Assembly (NCBI GenBank): GCA_963663895.2
Contig: CAXXRD010000004.1
Span: 59,139 to 123,138, forward strand
Reading direction: 5' to 3'
Length of the DNA: 64,000 bases
Source: Dehalococcoidia bacterium
GTDB taxonomy: Bacteria > Chloroflexota > Dehalococcoidia > Bin125
This document shows positions 26,664 through 36,949 of the stretch, piece after piece. Position 1 is the stretch's first letter, and the number at the start of each line of letters is the position of its first letter. A program made the translations under genes and the position numbers. Below the pieces are notes generated by a model. The model searched no databases and was not told where the DNA came from. It saw only the letters and a program-made list of their open reading frames with translations.

Positions 26664-26677
26664 GGGCGAACTCTGAG

Positions 26678-26695
26678 GCCTCTATTCGTAGAGGC
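26678..26695. repeat. Perfect inverted repeat GCCTCTA-TTCG-TAGAGGC at the islet left edge
   Basis: Read directly; no U-tract follows. Confidence 0.6.
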
Positions 26696-26748
26696 GGCGC
26701 GAATTCGGCGAGAACGTGGGGCGGCTGGATAATAATGCAGGGGGATAG

Positions 26749-27840
26749 ATGCGAAAGCGAGTGCCGGACGATAGCTTATATTCCGTTCTAGGAGGTACCT
26801 TGCCACTGCCCACGGACGAGGCCCAGCCGCTCTACAGCACCGAGTTGGGTCTTATGTTCCACGATAGCTGTGAATCAGCCTTGGCCCGACACCCCCTCAC
26901 GGAATTGCAGGGCCGCGTTCATCTCCTCTTCACATCCCCTCCTTTCCCCCTCAACACCAAGAAACGTTATGGCAACCGCACCGGTGATGACTACCTGCGT
27001 TGGCTCGCCAGTCTCGCTCCCCTTCTAAGTTCGTTGCTTCGTCCTGACGGCTCATTGGTCATCGAGATAGGCAACGCATGGGAGGCGGGGCGTCCGATTA
27101 TGTCGACACTCCCGCACAGGGCTCTTCTCAGCTTCCAGGAAGCGTCGGGGCTCCACCTCTGTCAGGAATTCATTGCGTTTAATCCTGCTCGCCTGCCCTC
27201 GCCTGTCCAGTGGGTGAACGTTGAGCGAATCCGAGTCAAGGATGCATTTACCAGAGTCTGGTGGCTCTCCCCGACTGACAGACCTAAGGCCGATAATCGC
27301 AAAATCCTCACGGCCTATAGTAAAAGTATGCAAAAATTGCTCTCCCGCGGCACGTACAACCCCGGGAAGCGCCCCTCCGCGCACGATATCGGCACCACGT
27401 CGTTTCTCAGTGATAACGGCGGGGCAGTCCCACCAAATGTATTGGTTCCAAGCGCTGCCGATGTGCTTGAAGAGGACGCATTAAGCGAAGAGGATGTTAT
27501 CTCTAATCTGATACCCGTCTCGAATACATCCTCGCAGGATTCCTATCTGGAGCACTGCCGGACTGAAGGGATTGATCCGCATCCTGCCCGAATGCCGGTA
27601 AAACTTGTTGAGTTTTTTGTCGAATTCCTCACCGATCCCGGAGACATCATCGTGGACCCTTTCGCAGGCTCAAACACCACAGGGGCAGTCTCGGAGCGGC
27701 TCGGGCGCAAATGGATCAGTGTCGAGGCGGATGCTGAATTCGCCTCGACATCATCAGCCAGGTTTCCATCGGTTGAGACCAGCGACCGGCAACACGAGAG
27801 TTTCGAGAAGATCTTCGCTATCGATCTGTCCGCTGGTTGA
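26749..27840 (+). CDS. Site-specific DNA methyltransferase, beta class (N4-cytosine or N6-adenine; M.PvuII-like motifs)
   Basis: Motif IV TSPPF precedes HPARMP and motif I DPFAGSNTTG. Confidence 0.92.
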   Translation: MRKRVPDDSLYSVLGGTLPLPTDEAQPLYSTELGLMFHDSCESALARHPLTELQGRVHLLFTSPPFPLNTKKRYGNRTGDDYLRWLASLAPLLSSLLRPDGSLVIEIGNAWEAGRPIMSTLPHRALLSFQEASGLHLCQEFIAFNPARLPSPVQWVNVERIRVKDAFTRVWWLSPTDRPKADNRKILTAYSKSMQKLLSRGTYNPGKRPSAHDIGTTSFLSDNGGAVPPNVLVPSAADVLEEDALSEEDVISNLIPVSNTSSQDSYLEHCRTEGIDPHPARMPVKLVEFFVEFLTDPGDIIVDPFAGSNTTGAVSERLGRKWISVEADAEFASTSSARFPSVETSDRQHESFEKIFAIDLSAG

Positions 27841-28501
27841 TCACCGCGAGATCAGAATCAAATTCTTTCTCCAAGAAGCAACTCAAATCGGTGAGAGCAG
27901 CGACGGCCTCAGGGCTGATAGGGCGCTCGCTATGCCGGAAAATGAAGGGGTCGCCTGCGCTCGCGGCCTCCGTTTCTTCAATGACTGCCCTGAAGTGCGC
28001 AAGGCGCGCACGAAGGTCATTCGCTTTGCTCCTGGCAGAAATGCCCCAAAAGGAGCATGCATCGTGGAACGTGATCTCACCAGATCGGCCCTCTCGCCAT
28101 TTGGTCATCGCACGAGAGTCAAGATAGCGCTGGAGGTCGGTTCCAGTGGCTCGATCAAGACCCGCCTTGCGAGGTGATGCGTCAGAACCAGCGCGCAAGA
28201 GATCGAGGGCACGACGTTCACCTGCGGCGGTGAGTCGGTACTGTTTATTCCCGACTCTCTCGATGAGTCCACGCTTGCGGAGGGGCTTAGACCCCATGAT
28301 CTCTGCGAAGACACGGTTTGAGTCGGGATAGATAGGCGTCCCCGATTCATCAAGGAACCCTCTCAACCCGAACGTTTCAGGGGAAGCCTTCCAGGCCGCG
28401 ACTACCAAGTCCTCGGCCGTAAAGACCGACTTGTCTGTCTCTCGAAGTCGCCAAGCCGAGAGGATGAGCTTCTCCGCGACGCCCAAGGACCGAGGCATCA
28501 C
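27818..28501 (-). CDS. Uncharacterised protein with an N-terminal winged-helix-like domain
   Basis: FTAEDLVVAAW...YPDSNRV...LRKRGLIERVG...YRLTAAG wing signature; 4-nt overlap with the upstream ATPase gene. Confidence 0.75.
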   Translation of the reverse strand: MMPRSLGVAEKLILSAWRLRETDKSVFTAEDLVVAAWKASPETFGLRGFLDESGTPIYPDSNRVFAEIMGSKPLRKRGLIERVGNKQYRLTAAGERRALDLLRAGSDASPRKAGLDRATGTDLQRYLDSRAMTKWREGRSGEITFHDACSFWGISARSKANDLRARLAHFRAVIEETEAASAGDPFIFRHSERPISPEAVAALTDLSCFLEKEFDSDLAVINQRTDR

Positions 28502-30747
28502 ATTGCCTCGGGCAAGCGGCCCTCAGTAATAAACGGTGTCAAGGCTCGTGCGGCTTTCCCTTGTACCTCGGACATCTGATCTCCCAATCGAGCCAACCAA
28601 TCAGTCTGGTCCAGTAGTTCAGCATCGGGGCCGGCAAGTAGCGCTATGTAGACCATGATCTCCGTATACCGTTCGATATGGTACATGCGCCACTCTCGGC
28701 TCTCATAACCAAAGCCCCTCGATTCATCAAGGTAGAGGTCAGCAAACGGCGCTTCGCTGTTGATCCACCAAACATTTAGCTCAACGTCGCGGGGTCGTTG
28801 ATAAACCGGTGGAACATCGCGACTAAGCTGAACAGACTCACCTGTCTCCGGATCGGGGTCAATGCCCGATATCAAGATCTTGGGGAACCCTTGCCTGCGG
28901 TCCTTCTCGGTTGATTCAACAACAGTCACCAGACTGGGAGCGGCCGCACATCGATCGTCAGCTGCGACGATCTCGGTCTCCCCGACCTCTCTGCCCCACA
29001 CCAACCCTGCCGCGCTCACACTTGCGACAGCAGGGTTCGCCTCATTCCAAATCAAGTAGATATCGCTCGTCGACCGGCCACCGCCCCGCAGCGTACACAT
29101 CGCACTCAAGGAAGAGCGCGACCCTACAGCAACGCTCATAGTGCGGGGAACAACCTCCATGTCCTGGATATCAACGACTTCAAGAGTAACCTGTTCGCTC
29201 GTAAGTTTTCGATCGCGAGTCTCGGCCCAAATCTTCGTGACCCCCGGCGCGAAAGTATTTATTACGTTAAGATCTTCGTCGACCAGAGCAACATTGGTGT
29301 CATCGACTTGCCAGTCAAATGGGGTTGGTTGAATGCGTCGCTCTTCCTGGAAGAAGCGGATATTAGGTCGGAAGGACACGCCAACACCCGCATGGGCATG
29401 GCTCAAGCTCAGCTCGATTCGTGTAGGAGTACCTCTTGGCAACGGGGGGACTGGGTCACCTCCTCCCCTTAGGCCACCCCACAATGTCGTGAAATGACGC
29501 GACATGAACTGATTCTTCCATTGATCCAGCGCCTCGTTAATGCGACTGAGTTCACTCTGCCCTTGTTGGGTCCTATCTCTGCGCTCTCGTTGTTCCCAAT
29601 CTCGACAGAAGTTCGAGAATTGTTCGGCAACCCAAGATTCCACAGCCCGAGTCAGCGGACTCTCCGCCAAGTTGGTGCGGGCGTTTGTCTTAAAGTCTGC
29701 CAAACTCTTTAGTTGGCACTCTCCATATACCTTCCACAGGTATGAGGACTGGAGATTCAGTGCCTCAACTGGTGTGAAGCCAAGAAAATCATCGTCGGCA
29801 AAGTAGGTAATGCTATGGCGGTGTCGGTGACTACGCGTCATTCGGACTTCGGAAGTTCTGAGGATAAGCCGTCCCTTCTCGTCCCCTGGCGTAACTGCCT
29901 GAATGACATCGGTGGTGAGAGGATCTAGTAGCTCGTCGGGAATCGGTATTTCAACCGGCTCGGGAAATTCGGAGGATGGAGGGATCGTTTCATGGGCGAG
30001 CGGTCCTCCACCGACGATCCTGCCTCTTTCCATGACGTACACGTGGCAGAGTTCAACGGCACGTGTCGTCTGTGGGTGATTCTTGATGGACTGCACAAGC
30101 TCCTGGACAGGGATTCTCCGGCTATAGCCCTTTGGCTCTCGCCCCATCACGAGGGTGAAGCCATTAGCGATCTCGAAGGCAGCACGAGCATTGTCGGGCA
30201 AGCCTGCGAACGTGACTCCCAGATCCCGGAGTGCATCCTCTAACTCAGCTTGCCGATCTGCGACAGGGTATCCCCGGCTCTGTGCAGCATCCGGGATGTA
30301 TCCAAATTGGAACGAGTTCGCCGCGACCCCGTATCTACTACCTCCACCCTCACTCACCGTCCGTATCTCCGCATGCTCACTGAACATCATGCTCATGTAG
30401 CACTTACCACCATTGCCATGCCCACCCTGAACCTGGATTCCAGGTGCATTCCGTGTTGCCGCGTCCGGATCAGCCCAGACCCGGAAGTTGCCCTCTATGG
30501 TCGCAGGGGTCATTCCGCCAAAGTCGAGCACACCGATCCCCTTGCCCCGCCTGCGAGTGCCCTGATCGAAGATGACAACGATGACGCGATCGGAAGGGGC
30601 AGTATTTCTCCGCGCGTATTCGTCAGACGAATTCTTAACCCACTCGGGGAGGCCGCCTTCGTGCGACTGAAATTCGGAGCAGATCAGCCTGACCGCCCCT
30701 TCCTTGTGGACATCTAGGACTTCGTCAGGCGTGTACTTGAATGCCAT
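28498..30747 (-). CDS. GHKL (MORC/Hsp90-like) ATPase with two internal Ig-like (Big_2-like) repeats
   Basis: PEWVKNSSD (ExxxNxxD), LDFGGM, GGHGNGGK; repeats W.VDDTNVALVD...APGVTKIWA and WNEANPAVASVSAAGLV.GREVGETEIVA. Confidence 0.82.
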   Translation of the reverse strand: MAFKYTPDEVLDVHKEGAVRLICSEFQSHEGGLPEWVKNSSDEYARRNTAPSDRVIVVIFDQGTRRRGKGIGVLDFGGMTPATIEGNFRVWADPDAATRNAPGIQVQGGHGNGGKCYMSMMFSEHAEIRTVSEGGGSRYGVAANSFQFGYIPDAAQSRGYPVADRQAELEDALRDLGVTFAGLPDNARAAFEIANGFTLVMGREPKGYSRRIPVQELVQSIKNHPQTTRAVELCHVYVMERGRIVGGGPLAHETIPPSSEFPEPVEIPIPDELLDPLTTDVIQAVTPGDEKGRLILRTSEVRMTRSHRHRHSITYFADDDFLGFTPVEALNLQSSYLWKVYGECQLKSLADFKTNARTNLAESPLTRAVESWVAEQFSNFCRDWEQRERRDRTQQGQSELSRINEALDQWKNQFMSRHFTTLWGGLRGGGDPVPPLPRGTPTRIELSLSHAHAGVGVSFRPNIRFFQEERRIQPTPFDWQVDDTNVALVDEDLNVINTFAPGVTKIWAETRDRKLTSEQVTLEVVDIQDMEVVPRTMSVAVGSRSSLSAMCTLRGGGRSTSDIYLIWNEANPAVASVSAAGLVWGREVGETEIVAADDRCAAAPSLVTVVESTEKDRRQGFPKILISGIDPDPETGESVQLSRDVPPVYQRPRDVELNVWWINSEAPFADLYLDESRGFGYESREWRMYHIERYTEIMVYIALLAGPDAELLDQTDWLARLGDQMSEVQGKAARALTPFITEGRLPEAM

Positions 30748-31038
30748 CGTTGCTCTTCACACTCGCTGGGCGTCTCGTCCAGTGAGGGGGATGATAGCGG
30801 GCCTACCCAAACAATTTCTCACGTGTGGTGGTCGGGGAGGAGGGAACCGTGCTGGGTCACTCGCTGTGCTTACCGATAGCAGAGGTAGACAGACGGATAG
30901 CTGGCTTCGGAGTGCTCGCGATCGTGGAGCGCACGCCGAGGCAGCGCAGACGCTCGCCCAGCCAATGTACGTCACTGGAGAAGCCGTCGGGACCTCCCCG
31001 AGCTCATCGGCCAGCGGTCTAAGGCGTGACGGGCGCGA

Positions 31039-31068: not shown

Positions 31069-31118
31069 GCGGGAAATAAGCCCCGGCCGCCCCGAGGCGG
31101 CCGAAGACGACCATAACC

Positions 31119-31256
31119 ATGCCCAAGCGAACCTACCAACCCAAGCGGAAACGGAGAAAGCGCGTACACGGATTCCGGGCCAGGATGGCAACCAAGGGCG
31201 GCTGCGCCGTGCTCAAGCGCCGCCGCCGCCGCGGGCGCCATCGGCTGACCGTCTAA
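31119..31256 (+). CDS. rpmH: 50S ribosomal protein L34 (missing from the ORF track)
   Basis: [45 protein letters not shown]. Confidence 0.97.
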
Positions 31257-31302
31257 GTCATTCGAGCGCGGGCCGGCATCAGCGCCCCTGCCTCCTTCCC
31301 GT

Positions 31303-31632
31303 ATGCGTCGCCAGCAACGGTTGCGTCACCGGCGGGAGTTCGCGGCTGCCTACCGCAGCGGAGCGGTCTTTCGCAGCCGGCTGCTCGTCCTGCGCGTGCG
31401 CGCCAATCCGGACGTGGACGGTCCGCGATTCGGCTTCGCGGCGGGCAAGCGGCTGGGAAGCGCCGTGGTGCGGAACCGGCTGAAACGGCGCCTGCGGGCG
31501 GCGGCCCGCGGGAGCGGAGCGCGAGGAGGAGCGGACGTGGTCGTCATCGCGCGCCCGGCGGCGCTGCGGGCGTCCTACCAGGAGATCGAAGGGGAGCTGG
31601 GCCTGCTGCTCGGCCAAGCCAAGCTCCTGTGA
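31303..31632 (+). CDS. rnpA: Ribonuclease P protein component
   Basis: RL...EF, RFGF...[17 protein letters not shown] motifs. Confidence 0.96.
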
Positions 31633-31922
31633 GGCCTGCGGCAGCGCCGAAGCAGCTTGCGATCGCGCTGATCCGGGGCTACCAGCGCTGCCTGTCGCCG
31701 CTGCTGCCGCCGAGTTGCCGCTTCGAACCGTCTTGCTCCCAGTACGGCGTCGAGGCCTTGCGGGAACGGGGGCTGCTCAGGGGCTCGCTCCAGACCGGCT
31801 GGCGGCTGCTGCGCTGCAATCCGCTCAACGGCGGCGGGTACGACCCGGTCCGCCCGCCTGCCGGGACGGCCGGTACCGGACACGACGGAGCCGCCGGGAA
31901 AACCGAAGTGCTGGAACGATGA
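31629..31922 (+). CDS. yidD: Membrane protein insertion efficiency factor YidD
   Basis: [18 protein letters not shown]...RLLRCNP...GGYDPV. Confidence 0.96.
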
Positions 31923-33157
31923 GCAGCGGGCCGAGCCGGCCGTGGTTTCACGTGAAACGCCGCCACCGGCTGCTGGTTCTCCCTCTCCTGGCGGGAACCC
32001 TGGCCCTCGCCTGCCAGAGCTTCGACACGGCCGACGGTTGGGCGTCGCCCCAAGTGTTCGAGGTCGGCGAGCGCGAGCTGATCATTCACGCCACGGGCGA
32101 GGACTCGATCGTGGCGATCGATCCCGGGACGGGCGAGAGCGTGTGGGAATTCCCCGACCCCGATTCCGACGGCCGCTTCCCCGGGCTCCTTCCCGATATC
32201 GATGAGAAGGTCGACGCGGACTCCTTCTACGCCGAGCCGCTCCTCCTGGCCGGTGAAGAGCTGGCCGTGGCCACGCATAAGCGCGGTCGCGTCTATGCGC
32301 TGCGCTTGGACGGCACCAGCGCCCGCCTCCTGATAGAGACGGGATCGGAGATCGTGTCGGAGCTCAACCTGGACGCGGCCGGGGTGCTGTACGTGACCAC
32401 CGCGACCGCGGGGGTGTTCGCGATCGACCCCGCGCTGCCGCTCGACCCGGAGAAGCCCCTCAGCGCCGGCGAACAGCCGGGGCTGCTCTGGCAGTACAAC
32501 GCTTTCGACGGGACCATTTGGGGGAGCCCCGCGCTCGCGGACACGGAGACGCACGGCCAGATCCTGCTGGTGCCGACGCTGGGGGGGACGCTCTACGCCC
32601 TGCGGACCGACCCGGCGGGCGGGACGGCGCGGGTGGCCTGGACGTTCGAGGCGGACGCCGGGATCGGCGGCGACGCCGTGGTCGCCGACGGCCGCCTGTT
32701 CATCGGCAGCTTCGACCGCCATCTGTACGCGATCGACGTCGAGAGCGGAGCGGAGCTGTGGCGGCACCGCAGCAGCGACTGGTTCTGGACCGAGGTGCTC
32801 GTCACGGACGGCACCGTCTACGCGGGAGACCTGAACGGTTACGTCTGGGCGCTGGATGCGGCGACCGGCGCTCCCCGCTGGGATGCCCCCTATGCAGGCG
32901 GAGACGATTTCCGCGCCAAGCCGGGCCTGACGGCCGACGGGGCGATGCTGATCGTCGTAGACCGCGACGGCTTCACGCACGCGATCGATCGGGAGAGCGG
33001 CAGCGGAGTATGGGTTCAGCCGAGGGAGACGCAGCTTCCCGACCTGTTCTATGCCAACCCGCTGGTGCTGGGAAGCGAGATCTTCGTGGCGAACGAAGCG
33101 GGTGAGCTGTTCCGCGTGAGCGAGGACGCGGTAGAGCTCTTCTACCCGCCGGACTAG
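31919..33157 (+). CDS. PQQ-like beta-propeller repeat lipoprotein (BamB-like)
   Basis: Lipobox LALAC; repeated A.D..tG...W motifs; ATG overlaps the yidD stop. Confidence 0.88.
31944..31959. promoter_or_regulatory. parS centromere-like site
   Basis: gGTTTCACGTGAAACg is a 14/16 match to TGTTTCACGTGAAACA; about 3.3 kb from parA. Confidence 0.85.
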
Positions 33158-33178
33158 GGAGCGCGAGCGCCAACGACG

Positions 33179-34201
33179 ATGGAAACGATCGAGCTCATCT
33201 TCGACACGATCCTGATCGATCCGATCATGAACGCGTTGATCATCTTGGCGAGCGCGCTCTTCGGGAGCTACGGGCTGGCGATCATCGCCTTCACCCTGAT
33301 CGCCCGGTTCGTGACCTACCCGTTGGTGCTGCGCCAGCTGCGCACGACGCGCGCCATGCAGGAGATGCAGCCGCGCCTGCAAGAGATCCAGAAGAAATAC
33401 AAAGACCCGCGCCGGCGCCAGCAGGAGATGATGAAGCTTTACCGAGAGGTGGGCTTCAATCCTTTGGGCTGTGCCCTGCCGCTGTTGGTTCAGCTCCCGA
33501 TCTGGATCGCACTATACCAAGTTATCCGTCAATCACTGGGGACGACCCCGGAGTCGCTCTTCGGACTGTCGGGGCGCCTCTACGACTGGACCTACATCAC
33601 CGAGGCCCCGCCGCTCGATCGGAATTTCCTGACGCTGGACCTGGCGAATCCGTCCTTCATCCTGGCGATCTTGGTCGCCGTGGGCACGTTCGTGCAGCAG
33701 AAGCTCAGCACTACGCGATCGGTGGCCAAGGACGACCGTCAGGCCTCCGTGAACCGCACCATGATCTGGATCTTGCCGATTATGTTCGGTTTCTTCTCCT
33801 TGCAGGTGCCGAGCGGCCTCTCGCTCTACTGGTTCGTCACCACCCTGTTCACCATCGTGGCGGCCTACATCTACAACGGCCCGGAGAACTTCCGTTGGCG
33901 GCAGCTCTTCACCATGGAGCCGATGCTGGCCCCCTCCACCGCAGCCCGCGCGGCGGCGGACGGCGGCGGAAGCCGATCATCAAACGAGCACACGGCGAGC
34001 GAGGATGAAAAAGCGGCCGAGCCGGGCGAGCCGGCCAAGCCCCAGGCGCAGGAGGCGCCGGCGCGGCGGTCGCGGCGGCGGCGGCGCCGGCGGCGGCGGC
34101 GCGGCGGCAACCGGCCTTGGGAGCAAGGAGAGAACCGGGCGGCGGGGGACGGCAACTCGCGATCTTCATCTGGAGCATCGGACGATCCCTCCGCACAATG
34201 A
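33179..34201 (+). CDS. yidC: Membrane protein insertase YidC/Oxa1
   Basis: YGLAII.FT, MQ..QP....IQKKYK, NPLGC.LP.L.Q.PI and PSGL.LYW motifs. Confidence 0.96.
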   Translation: METIELIFDTILIDPIMNALIILASALFGSYGLAIIAFTLIARFVTYPLVLRQLRTTRAMQEMQPRLQEIQKKYKDPRRRQQEMMKLYREVGFNPLGCALPLLVQLPIWIALYQVIRQSLGTTPESLFGLSGRLYDWTYITEAPPLDRNFLTLDLANPSFILAILVAVGTFVQQKLSTTRSVAKDDRQASVNRTMIWILPIMFGFFSLQVPSGLSLYWFVTTLFTIVAAYIYNGPENFRWRQLFTMEPMLAPSTAARAAADGGGSRSSNEHTASEDEKAAEPGEPAKPQAQEAPARRSRRRRRRRRRRGGNRPWEQGENRAAGDGNSRSSSGASDDPSAQ

Positions 34202-34247
34202 TTAAGCGAGAGCGGCACAGCCGCGGGATTAGGTAAGGACGCAAGGG

Positions 34248-35189
34248 ATGGCGCGACGGACTCGCGAGGCGGTGGAGCGGACCGGCAAGACAGTCGACGA
34301 GGCGGTGCAGCGCGCGCTGCGCGACCTCGGCCTCGATCGGACCGAAGTCGAGGTGCAGGTGATCAGCGAAGGACGGACGGGCGTGCTGGGGATCGGCGCG
34401 ACCTCAGCGCGCGTCCGGGTGGCGCCGCTGGCGCCCGGCGAGCCGGTCGAGGCCGCGCCGACCGCCAGAGAGGAAGCATTGCCACGGATCGACGACTACG
34501 CCCTGGATGAGCGCGAAGAGGTGGACCCGCGCACGCGGCCGGGACGGAGCAGCCGTGGGAGGGGGAGTACGCGGGAGGCGCCGTGGGATCGTGGCCGGCA
34601 GGGACGCGGACGGGCGCGCGAACAGCCGGAGCCGCAGGTTCCGCTGGAGGAGCGCATTCCCTTCGAAATGCTCGCATCGCCGCTGGAGGAGCCCGTCGAG
34701 GATCCGGTCGAGCACGCGCGCAACATCCTGCATGATCTCATGCGGATCATGGGCATCGACGCCGAGATCACGAGCCGGACGCCGGAAACGCCGATGGACG
34801 GGCTCGATCACGCGGCAGCGGTGCTGGACGTGAATCCGGCGCACGCCGGCGACGACCTCGGCTTCCTGATCGGGCGCCGTGGCGAACACTTGGCGGCGCT
34901 GCAGTACATCGTGAACGTGATCCTGAGCCAGACGCACAGCGGCGGAAATCCAGTCACGGTTGACGTGCATCACTACAAACGCAGGCGGGAGGAGTCGCTG
35001 AACGCCTTGGCGCGGCAGATGGCGGACGAAGTGCGCCGAACCAAGGAAGAAGTGGACTTGGAGCCGATGTCCGCCGCCGAGCGCCGCATCATTCATCTCG
35101 CGCTGGCGGAGGAGACCGACGTGGCGACGGAGTCGGTGGGGGCGGGTGATGCGCGCAGGGTGACCATTGTGTACCTTGACGAGAGTTAG
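34248..35189 (+). CDS. jag: RNA-binding protein Jag/KhpB (Jag_N, KH, R3H)
   Basis: GKTVDEA, LIGRRGEHL.ALQY and LEPM...ERRIIH motifs. Confidence 0.94.
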   Translation: MARRTREAVERTGKTVDEAVQRALRDLGLDRTEVEVQVISEGRTGVLGIGATSARVRVAPLAPGEPVEAAPTAREEALPRIDDYALDEREEVDPRTRPGRSSRGRGSTREAPWDRGRQGRGRAREQPEPQVPLEERIPFEMLASPLEEPVEDPVEHARNILHDLMRIMGIDAEITSRTPETPMDGLDHAAAVLDVNPAHAGDDLGFLIGRRGEHLAALQYIVNVILSQTHSGGNPVTVDVHHYKRRREESLNALARQMADEVRRTKEEVDLEPMSAAERRIIHLALAEETDVATESVGAGDARRVTIVYLDES

Positions 35190-35231
35190 CACTGCTCGTT
35201 CCGCGGCGGGGTCGGCGCATGCTGGAGCCTG

Positions 35232-36035
35232 ATGGCCATTTGGGCTATCGCGAACCAGAAGGGCGGCGTCGGCAAGAGCACGACGGGGATCAACCTGGGC
35301 GCGGCGCTCGCGCGACGCGGGCTGCGGGTGTTGCTCGTCGACAGCGACCCGCAAAGTAACGCGACGAGCGGTCTCGGCATCCGCCCGGGCGACACGCCCA
35401 CCATCTACGATCTCTTGTTCGCTGCGGCTCCCCAGCCGGACGCGGCCATTCTGCCGACGCGGCAGCAGGGACTCCATCTGATCGCCGCCACGCCGGCGCT
35501 CGCCGGCGCGGAGGTCGAACTGGCCGGGGCGCCGGCGCGCGAGCACCGCCTGCAACGCGCCTTGGCCGGGGCCGCGGCGCGCTTCGATCAGATCCTGATC
35601 GACTGTCCGCCATCGCTGGGACTGCTCACCGTGAACGCGCTCTGCACGGCGGATACCGTGCTGGTGCCGGTGCAGTGCGAATACCTGGCGCTGGAAGGGT
35701 TGGGGCACCTCATCACGACCATCGATCTCGTGCGCCGCAACCTGAACCCGCATCTCGCCGTCGGCGCGGTGCTGCTGACGATGTTCGACGGGCGCACCAA
35801 TCTGGCGCAGCAAGTGGTGGACGAGGTCCGGCAGCATTTCCCGGAGACGCTCCAGACCGTCATCCCCCGGTCGATCCGATTAGGGGAAGCGCCCAGCCAC
35901 GGGCGCACGATCTTCGAGTACGCGCCACAGTCCGCGGGAGCAGTCGCCTACGCCCAAGCGGCGGCGGAGCTGCAAGCCACGGCTTTCGGAGCGCGGCAGC
36001 CTCCCGTGCAGGCTACGGTAGGAGCAGGAGCATGA
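35232..36035 (+). CDS. parA: Chromosome partitioning ATPase ParA/Soj
   Basis: NQKGGVGKST, D.DPQ.NAT, IDCPPSLG and PVQCEYLALEG motifs. Confidence 0.96.
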   Translation: MAIWAIANQKGGVGKSTTGINLGAALARRGLRVLLVDSDPQSNATSGLGIRPGDTPTIYDLLFAAAPQPDAAILPTRQQGLHLIAATPALAGAEVELAGAPAREHRLQRALAGAAARFDQILIDCPPSLGLLTVNALCTADTVLVPVQCEYLALEGLGHLITTIDLVRRNLNPHLAVGAVLLTMFDGRTNLAQQVVDEVRQHFPETLQTVIPRSIRLGEAPSHGRTIFEYAPQSAGAVAYAQAAAELQATAFGARQPPVQATVGAGA

Positions 36036-36949
36036 GCAGCCGACATGCGTTAGGACGCGGCTTGGACTCTTTGATCTCGCCTGCGGGCGGCGGTCGTGTG
36101 GAACCACCCGCGGAAACGCCAACGGCGGCGCGCACGGCGCTCCCCATCGCGGCGATCCAACCGAATCCCGACCAACCGCGCAGCTATGTGGACCCGGCGG
36201 GCTTGGAGGAGCTGGCATCGAGCATCCGCGAGCACGGCGTGTTGCAGCCGATCATCGTGCGGCGCGACGCGGAGGCAGGCTACGTCTTGGTCGCCGGCGA
36301 GCGACGCTGGCGCGCGGCACGGCTCGCGGGGCTCTCGGAGATTCCCGCGATCATCACGGACGTGGCAAGCGATGGACTGCTGGCGGTGGCCTTGGTCGAG
36401 AACCTGCAGCGAGAAGACCTCAGCCCCTTGGAGGAGGCGCACGCCTACGCCCGCTTGATCGATCGGACGGGAATGACGCAGCAGCGCCTGGCGGCACGGG
36501 TCGGGAAGAGCCGCGCCGCGATCACGAACGCGCTGCGGCTGCTGCAGCTGCCCGATCCGATCCGCTTGAGCTTGGCGGCCCGCGAGATCAGCGAAGGGCA
36601 CGCGCGCGCGATCCTGGGCGCGGACGGAGAGGAGCAGCAGCTCCAGATTTGGGAGCAGGTGAAACGGCGCGGGCTATCGGTCCGGGATACCGAGCGCGCG
36701 GTGCAAGCGCTGCGGCCCACAAAGCTGACGGGCAGGGCGAAGGCGCGGAAGCCGGGCGACGACCTGGCGCAGGAACGCCTGCAATCCGCACTCGGCACCA
36801 AGGTGCGGGTGGAGCGCGGCCGCAAGGGCGGGCGAATCGTAGTGCAGTGGTACGACGACGAGCAGCTCGAGGCGATCGTGACCGCGTTGGTCGCGACGGC
36901 CGCGGCGATCGAAGAGCGGTCGCCTGCGCCGGACTCGATCGCCGTCTGA
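36032..36949 (+). CDS. parB: Chromosome partitioning protein ParB/Spo0J
   Basis: LGRGL..L, QPR, GERRWRA, ENLQREDL and HTH GKSR..ITN.LRL motifs. Confidence 0.96.
   Translation: MSSRHALGRGLDSLISPAGGGRVEPPAETPTAARTALPIAAIQPNPDQPRSYVDPAGLEELASSIREHGVLQPIIVRRDAEAGYVLVAGERRWRAARLAGLSEIPAIITDVASDGLLAVALVENLQREDLSPLEEAHAYARLIDRTGMTQQRLAARVGKSRAAITNALRLLQLPDPIRLSLAAREISEGHARAILGADGEEQQLQIWEQVKRRGLSVRDTERAVQALRPTKLTGRAKARKPGDDLAQERLQSALGTKVRVERGRKGGRIVVQWYDDEQLEAIVTALVATAAAIEERSPAPDSIAV

Follow-up and report, generated by a model that had tools for sequence, protein, structure and literature searches.

Within a 64,000-nucleotide stretch of a Dehalococcoidia bacterium contig (the window), we describe a compact three-gene cassette—a GHL-family ATPase bearing two Big_2-type immunoglobulin-like (Ig) domains, a winged-helix partner protein, and an M.PvuII-like cytosine methyltransferase—that is a real, undescribed variant of the restriction-modification operons built on GHKL ATPases, noteworthy less for its Ig domains than for the nuclease that it seems to lack. 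A first-pass annotation of the window had singled out the ATPase and overlooked its two neighbors, which carry most of the functional signal. With somewhat less than even confidence, we read the cassette as a mobile, restriction-modification-like unit in which the methylase would mark self, the partner would find unmethylated sites, and the ATPase would clamp the DNA without cutting it. Gene content, folds, and co-occurrence were observed; binding, dimerization, clamping, and defense we infer because of the architecture of GHL proteins (as set out in the Introduction to Tiamat, 10.64898/2026.09.30.754977) and by analogy with MORC2.

The ATPase gene (28498..30747, minus strand) is an open reading frame (ORF) of 749 amino acids (aa) that contains every motif quoted in the first-pass annotation. 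An AlphaFold2 model made from 121 homologues (mean predicted local distance difference test, pLDDT, 91.8; predicted template modeling score, pTM, 0.71), together with structural matches and homologues, gives the order GHKL, S5, helix, linker, Ig, Ig, and C-terminal domain. Model residues 9–392 superpose on MORC3 (5ix1) with Z 18.2 and a root-mean-square deviation (rmsd) of 3.9 over 301 aligned residues, and likewise on GRP94 (Z 18.1), SMCHD1 (Z 16.0), MORC2 (Z 15.8), and MutL (Z 15.6); the best Hsp90 score is Z 18.7, and matches to the N-terminal plus S5 module of Hsp90/HtpG span Z 17–18.7. Overall, GHKL plus S5 superpositions reached Z 15–18.7 at 10–14% identity, and because MORC3, Hsp90, SMCHD1, MORC2, and MutL score so similarly, the fold favors no single subfamily. 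The Bergerat-type ATP-binding domain proposed earlier for the N-terminus is borne out by these matches and by its catalytic residues: in the GHKL domain (residues 1–250; 29998..30747, minus strand), placed by model, structure match, and conservation, E35 and N39 are conserved in 64 of 65 near-complete homologues (the remaining row is truncated at its start), and D75, G78, and the residues G109, G111, G113, and K115 of the glycine-rich lid (108–115) are conserved in all 65. The protein is an ATPase with a complete set of catalytic residues. An S5-fold transducer that had been overlooked (about residues 251–392; 29572..29997, minus strand), recognized by structural and profile comparison and by conservation, contributes R357, also invariant in the 65 rows; in profile comparison this residue falls, at low significance (E 0.011), on the part of E. 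coli HtpG that carries the arginine of the catalytic loop. From model and alignment, the end of a long helix (393–423, with conserved N404, W410, and K411) and a low-confidence Gly/Pro linker (424–439) follow (together 29431..29571, minus strand). The sequence supports a cytoplasmic protein, as had been proposed, with no hydrophobic segment (top 19-residue Kyte-Doolittle mean 1.05; none of the 65 homologues above 1.6). The ATPase part has no match in Pfam, NCBIfam, or PADLOC, and no PADLOC model matched the window protein or 19 homologues; profile libraries detect one Big_2 domain only, and the combination of GHKL with tandem Big_2 domains lies outside every curated family tested. ESM Atlas neighbors of one ATPase homologue include clusters of ~600 aa labeled HATPase_c_3.

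One search returned at least 353 homologues, and a second 143 representatives at E up to 1e-30, a few of which match through the Ig repeats alone; among species-representative genomes, scanning confirmed 192 stretches and yielded 80 loci, or 81 with the window. The near-complete set (n = 65) excludes 16 of the 81 loci, in which the ATPase ORF is shorter than 590 aa; paired ATPase-partner comparisons omit L045, L046, L050, and L079, and recognition-helix comparisons omit L046. Within 4 kb of the ATPase, the partner occurs in 69 of 81 loci and a cytosine methylase in 58; where at least 3 kb of flank is present on both sides (long-flank loci, n = 45), the counts are 43 and 38. In the window, the partner (226 aa; 27818..28498, minus strand) begins in overlap with the stop codon of the ATPase. 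From model and structure match, it combines a winged helix (residues 1–108; Z 10.9 to 2qvo over residues 1–107; net charge about +4) with an all-helical domain, in which a pattern around residues 143–165 resembles what we take to be a helix-turn-helix. This C-terminal domain, which was modeled only as part of the whole protein, matched no fold or family. In all 62 cases ATPase and partner share a strand, and in 61 they are adjacent; their pairwise identities correlate (Spearman 0.82; 59 loci), and the winged-helix partner is co-transcribed and co-diverging with the ATPase. A predicted complex of the two scored 0.50 (best of three controls, 0.00), a value that the tool rates as weak and that lies in the range up to 0.60 in which 18 of 157 solved complexes passed the mark, as did both of the mismatches (2 of 215) that passed; across runs, contact agreement was at least 76% and partner pLDDT at least 76.

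The third gene (26749..27840, plus strand), convergent with the other two and overlapping the partner gene at its 3′ end, encodes a beta-class N4-cytosine DNA methyltransferase of the M.PvuII family (Pfam PF01555; PADLOC MTase_II, E 1.3e-90). Its closest solved structure is M.PvuII (PDB 1boo, E 7.6e-76; next match, 5e-12), and by this likeness it probably shares the M.PvuII specificity, CAGCTG. An M.PvuII-like methylase is present in 28 of the 38 near-complete rows with two Ig domains and a C5 enzyme in none of them, and the gene order is ATPase-partner; the other rows have a C5 enzyme (22/27), often Vsr (16/27), and the order partner-ATPase. Vsr occurs in 18 of the 81 loci overall and in a single two-Ig row. 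Within the two-Ig branch (28 loci), tree comparison with the ATPase gave 0.16 for the methylase and 0.88 for the partner, and the methylase takes up four arrangements while always belonging to the M.PvuII family. That the methylase is uncoupled from the ATPase yet constant in family suggests that the methylated site outweighs gene ancestry. The predicted recognition helix of the partner follows its branch consensus in all 55 methylase-bearing loci, but where no methylase is present it does so in just 1 of 5 long-flank loci, or in 5 of 13 once short-flank loci are included; helix identity exceeds that of the rest of the partner by 0.32 with a methylase (55 loci) versus 0.11 without (13 loci). 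The eight loci with a drifted helix (L014, L035, L045, L059, L062, L069, L070, and L075) all have no neighboring cytosine methylase, and four have long flanks; such cassettes are possibly specificity switches or decaying copies. In L075, a different N6/N4 methylase is present, with an ICEA gene upstream. These comparisons are suggestive of a link between partner helix and methylase. We also considered avoidance of CAGCTG, which in loci with N4 enzymes is depleted more than any other palindromic hexamer (ratio 0.62), yet reaches 0.69 in those with C5 enzymes; because it is depleted in both, and is not avoided in the two-Ig cassette genes, we dropped it as evidence.

The three genes are the only ones on an island of 4.2 kb (26664..30900; ends approximate) between a lytic transglycosylase gene and rpmH. 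Guanine-cytosine (GC) content is 56.3% in the island versus 70.5% and 68.6% in the 10-kb flanks, and GC at third codon positions is 0.59–0.62 in its genes versus 0.84–0.91 in the flanks. Neither a nuclease nor a helicase gene is found within the island, and its ends show no convincing direct repeat and no nearby tRNA. Across the family, the cassette is scattered over many phyla. Foreign composition, sporadic spread, and unrelated flanking genes typical of mobile defense cassettes suggest that it is mobile. The ATPase part had no match among phage records and one among plasmid records, on a conjugative plasmid of a cultured Ensifer adhaerens (NZ_CP118613.1; L082:1710-10047). This plasmid carries the ATPase, an M.PvuII-like methylase, and, where the partner would be expected, a 229-aa gene; an AAA gene (weakly McrB-like) and an unknown gene lie between the cassette genes. 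In five loci (L021, L037, L046, L008, and L058) the ATPase gene is in pieces—in L021 with a DDE transposase insertion—which is consistent with cassette turnover or assembly errors. The most divergent copy, in a member of the Pelagibacteraceae (L077:8492-13369), has two Ig domains, an N4 methylase, and a Vsr gene.

Operons of this general kind were predicted by Iyer, Abhiman, and Aravind in 2008 (PMC2292703), who described GHKL plus S5 ATPases in restriction-modification operons, mostly with cytosine methylases and Vsr, and a superfamily II helicase in about 70% of MORC operons. The cassette shares with those MORC/paraMORC operons the GHKL plus S5 module, a conserved C-terminal extension, cytosine methylase or Vsr neighbors, and sporadic lateral spread, and differs in its near-obligate winged-helix partner and its zero to two Ig domains; neither a superfamily II helicase nor a fused or common nuclease was recognized. 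The classical MORC S5 motif (GhXhhpXXRhl) is found in none of the 65 homologues, the ExxxH of the paraMORC2 S5 domain in 7 of 65, and the HxH of the paraMORC5 C-terminal domain in 1 of 62; no TIR match was found in 52 C-terminal domains (the paraMORC4 trait), with a TIR neighbor at L048 only. For the RecB-like E-D-ExK nuclease of paraMORC3/GHKL-Shedu, there was no nuclease match in Pfam or PADLOC and no ExK among conserved columns, and a loose pattern appeared in 30 of 62. For paraMORC1, which has a conserved C-terminal extension and occurs with MORC or HNH genes, an extension is present here and no recurrent MORC or HNH neighbor was seen. Judged against these descriptions, the cassette resembles paraMORC operons yet is set apart from MORC, paraMORC2, paraMORC4, and paraMORC5 by their own motifs. 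From the PvuII type II system (pPvu1), whose methylase is 42% identical over 87% of its length, it differs in having no PvuII endonuclease or C protein, with ATPase and winged-helix genes beside the methylase instead.

Antiphage GHL ATPases offer a further comparison. Tiamat (10.64898/2026.09.30.754977) combines GHKL, DUF3684, and a NOV_C nuclease, of the PD-(D/E)xK type, with an inactive Wss1-like metalloprotease fold and has no S5 domain, whereas the window ATPase has S5 and no DUF3684, NOV_C, or PADLOC match; VcSduA, a paraMORC3 protein (PMC12137116), likewise carries a PD-(D/E)xK nuclease. Among eukaryotic relatives, MORC2 clamps and compacts DNA (PMC12216690), and SMCHD1 has at least one Ig-like domain, reported as DNA-binding, after its ATPase (10.64898/2026.09.14.751594). 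The window ATPase has the GHKL plus S5 fold in common with both, at 13–14% identity, and no hinge, BAH, UBL, or CW domain was seen in it; its GHKL-Ig likeness to SMCHD1 is architectural and probably convergent. With Hsp90/HtpG it shares the N-terminal plus S5 module and the arginine loop, while no match was found for the C-terminal half and the DNA-methylase context differs. The cassette is also distinct from the response-regulator-linked GHKL systems in the available part of PMC8011034, and a term search of the available text of PMC10853773 and PMC12839542 gave no mention of GHKL or MORC. No description of the three-gene cassette was found in the literature covered, from which most subscription journals were absent.

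The two Ig repeats lie exactly where the first-pass annotation had placed them, at residues 440–525 (29173..29430, minus strand) and 526–611 (28915..29172, minus strand). The second matches Pfam Big_2 (PF02368) over residues 528–599 at E 1.7e-7 and 31.5 bits, against a curated cut-off of 22.8; the first, assigned by repeat and profile comparison and Foldseek, matches the second with probability 97.8 and E 1e-12. As a pair they resemble LigA (8gyr; Foldseek E 5e-13, Z 11.4), and the domains also resemble a Big_2-CBM56 protein (Z 10.5) and phage tail tube, capsid, and tail proteins (Z 7–9). Two Ig domains are present in 38 of the 65 near-complete homologues, a different single beta-rich insert in 12, and a glycine-rich linker in 15, all in the same place; because the single insert matches Big_2 repeats only weakly or out of register, we do not call it Big_2. 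The 27 homologues with no Big_2 pair retain the same partner and a cytosine methylase. In a quick ATPase tree, on which L077 and the L039 group form long branches, two changes explain the three insert states; with the root unplaced, gain and loss of the Ig domains look alike on it. Mean identity among 119 close homologues is 58% and 51% for the Ig domains, 57% for the ATPase, and 61% for the C-terminal domain, so that the Ig domains, conserved about as well as the ATPase, are not hypervariable as expected of a sensor of phage proteins. They look accessory and, across the whole system, optional, and they do not evolve fast.

The acidic C-terminal alpha/beta domain (residues 620–745; 28513..28890, minus strand) has a mean net charge of −9 across homologues, and its profiles gave nothing significant in PDB sequences or Pfam, a blank that is no proof of a new fold. 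Its likeness to the IN..HP motif of Hsp90/MORC-type C-termini, suggested earlier, did not hold: the motif is in none of 62 C-terminal domains, IN...P or LN...P is in 52, and there is no significant HtpG profile match. More generally, no Hsp90-type C-terminus was recognized: a profile against one HtpG sequence was not significant, and the structural matches end at residue 392. In a wide structural search, SPRTN (6mdx) matched model range 396–734 (Z 6.9, rmsd 3.3, 104 aligned) and ERAP1 range 393–741 (Z 6.9), where Z below 8 may, by the tool's own warning, mean merely a common arrangement. One rigid alignment (396–734) spans both the pre-Ig helix and the C-terminal domain, which suggests that the Ig pair loops out; if real, the pre-Ig helix and C-terminal domain would form one zincin-like (SprT-like) unit, a lead that the model offers and that weakly recalls the Wss1-like fold of Tiamat. 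HExxH is in none of 62 C-terminal domains, so such a unit would be inactive. The Ig pair may then add an interaction surface or stiffness from a loop of the C-terminal module, and we do not take it for the core sensor. The earlier idea of Ig repeats as rigid spacers in an ATP-driven clamp is supported for the clamp and doubtful for the in-line spacer, since the Ig pair appears looped out. Polar residues kept in at least 50 of 62 rows are S627, D632, Q650, R651, D654, N663, S683, R687, and R693, of which N663 alone is invariant; no histidine reaches 80% conservation in this domain or in the partner.

In the mechanism that we propose, the methylase would mark host sites, here probably CAGCTG by likeness to M.PvuII, and the winged helix of the partner would bind the same site in its unmethylated form, such as would enter on phage or plasmid DNA. 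The partner would then recruit the ATPase, which would dimerize like other GHL proteins and close on DNA upon ATP binding, and the locked or compacting clamp would stop transcription or replication of foreign DNA with no cutting, as MORC2 compacts DNA. Self/non-self logic based on methylation, which is common to readings with a clamp and with DNA cutting, is probable. Several observations weigh against the proposal as a whole. The two-Ig cassette genes show no avoidance of CAGCTG (37 occurrences where 40.2 are expected, 0.92), and the negative charge of the C-terminal domain is unlike that of a DNA-binding surface. The helix pattern was defined post hoc and on the tree amounts to ~3 changes, or 2–3 independent pairs, below significance. 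The C5 branch (20 loci) has four methylase target-recognition types and one near-unchanged partner helix, which a simple site-for-site model fails to explain. Finally, among 176 unassigned ORFs within 1.2 kb of cassettes scanned against Pfam, there was no helicase family and no common nuclease, and 96 had no Pfam match, so the absence of a nuclease rests on a failure to recognize one; one is possibly encoded elsewhere in the genome, or an active site is unrecognized.

A first alternative is that DNA is cut, either because the ATPase is a MutL-like matchmaker that recruits a nuclease from elsewhere (or Vsr in the C5 branch) or by a cryptic nuclease site in one of the unassigned C-terminal domains of ATPase and partner. 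We give this about one chance in a few: all systems in the available text of PMC2292703 pair GHKL plus S5 ATPases with nucleases, several polar residues of the C-terminal domain are widely kept, and nuclease-like Pfam matches adjoin 8 of 80 loci—HNH (L005, L016), YhcG (L021), PLD (L022), Mrr_cat (L048), NOV_C (L063), ICEA (L075), and RmuC (L077). These neighbors, however, belong to different families, none in more than two loci, and the window island has none; Vsr is nearly absent from two-Ig rows, and the C-terminal domain has neither a well-conserved histidine nor an invariant residue beyond N663. It is improbable that the cassette is instead a guard or addiction module, in which an Hsp90-like ATPase, through its acidic C-terminal domain, would hold on to the basic winged-helix protein until a drop in methylation or a phage inhibitor frees it and the cell arrests. 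The opposite charges of the two surfaces, fold scores as high for Hsp90 as for MORC, the single partner helix found with several methylase types, and recurrent pairs upstream that we take to be PIN and AbrB-like (8 and 6 loci) would fit such a module, but no toxic catalytic domain was recognized in the partner, and eight methylase-less loci persist in which the helix has drifted, as fits the loss of a role in reading DNA.

The partner is made solely of DNA-binding folds, and proteins with sigma-70 region 4, RNA polymerase alpha C-terminal domain (alpha-CTD), DnaA_C, or HARE-HTH follow the ATPase in the branch with no Big_2 domains (15 and 11 loci), as might be expected if the cassette were a methylation-responsive regulator or chromosome organizer with no role in defense, its partner a transcription factor whose DNA complex the ATPase remodels. 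We hold this to be a slim prospect, as the sporadic spread, foreign GC, and unrelated flanks are typical of mobile defense cassettes, and a sigma-like gene also follows a plasmid Dnd-like helicase/DndD system with the same methylase family. Least likely, and in our judgment very improbable, is the first-pass suggestion that the Ig repeats trigger the ATPase by sensing or mimicking structural proteins of phages. Their resemblance to phage tail and capsid proteins, their retention across deep two-Ig lineages, and a proposal of invader sensing by the Ig-like domain of BREX PglZ (PMC12839542) speak for it, but the matches to LigA and the Big_2-CBM56 protein outscore those to phage proteins, and the PglZ domain is described in that source as fast-evolving, whereas these domains are conserved like the ATPase. 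Being optional, with more than a third of homologues having the same partner and no Ig pair, and not fast-evolving, the Ig domains thus speak against phage sensing.

ORF clustering around the cassettes revealed no further family common to most loci. Besides the sigma/DnaA_C/alpha-CTD helix-turn-helix proteins (combinations at L079:12049-13140, L067:11697-13196, and L040:2970-5435, one follower of the DnaA_C/sigma type also having gyrase C-terminal repeats), serine recombinases recur (15 loci). Two unannotated families lie just upstream, one of 86 aa in 11 loci (L008:341-601) and one of about 209 aa in 6 (L039:9284-9913), with no Pfam or PADLOC match for either; in other cases, that upstream position is taken by Mrr_N, HTH_17, HARE-HTH, or the PIN/AbrB-like pair. 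At L022:9902-12529, the ATPase ORF is short (354 aa), and the usual place of the partner after it is occupied by a PLD/NgoFVII-like nuclease domain, with a partial methylase next; in L041:6587-9805 an M.PvuII-like methylase forms the C-terminal part of a 1072-aa protein whose N-terminal 760 residues are unannotated. The best plasmid match to the window methylase (NZ_CP015441.1; L084:5950-12909) lies beside a dnd_restrict_1-like helicase, a DndD-like ATPase, and a sigma-like gene, and the M.PvuII-like family therefore also serves another ATP-dependent system. In the window itself, a strong terminator-like hairpin of 11 pairs (31081-31106, minus strand) precedes the ATPase gene on the strand that encodes it; no promoter-like site was found for the cassette, and the sole one seen faces rpmH. 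The island sits just upstream of rpmH-rnpA-yidD-(PQQ-repeat protein)-yidC-jag-parA-parB (31119-36949). The gene dnaA and the origin often lie at regions of the rpmH-rnpA-yidD type; here no dnaA ORF adjoins these genes, and cumulative GC skew climbs steadily from about 31 kb.

A 2026 preprint still rates antiphage activity as rare among GHL proteins, and the demonstrated cases in the literature covered, Tiamat and VcSduA, both carry a nuclease. The family described here, for which Pfam, NCBIfam, and PADLOC have no model, is a compact three-gene case across many phyla, and it offers natural controls in copies with two, one, or no Ig domains, with N4 or C5 methylases, and with no methylase and a changed reading helix. 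It makes testable the methylation-dependent restriction of DNA by a bacterial MORC-like clamp with no cutting. In its fullest form—methylation-guided, nuclease-free silencing, in which a winged-helix reader would load a MORC-like ATPase to clamp or compact unmethylated DNA—this is a possibility that we regard as doubtful but worth stating; if true, MORC/SMCHD1 silencing would have in this cassette a minimal equivalent among prokaryotes, one that, like SMCHD1, places Ig domains next to the ATPase.

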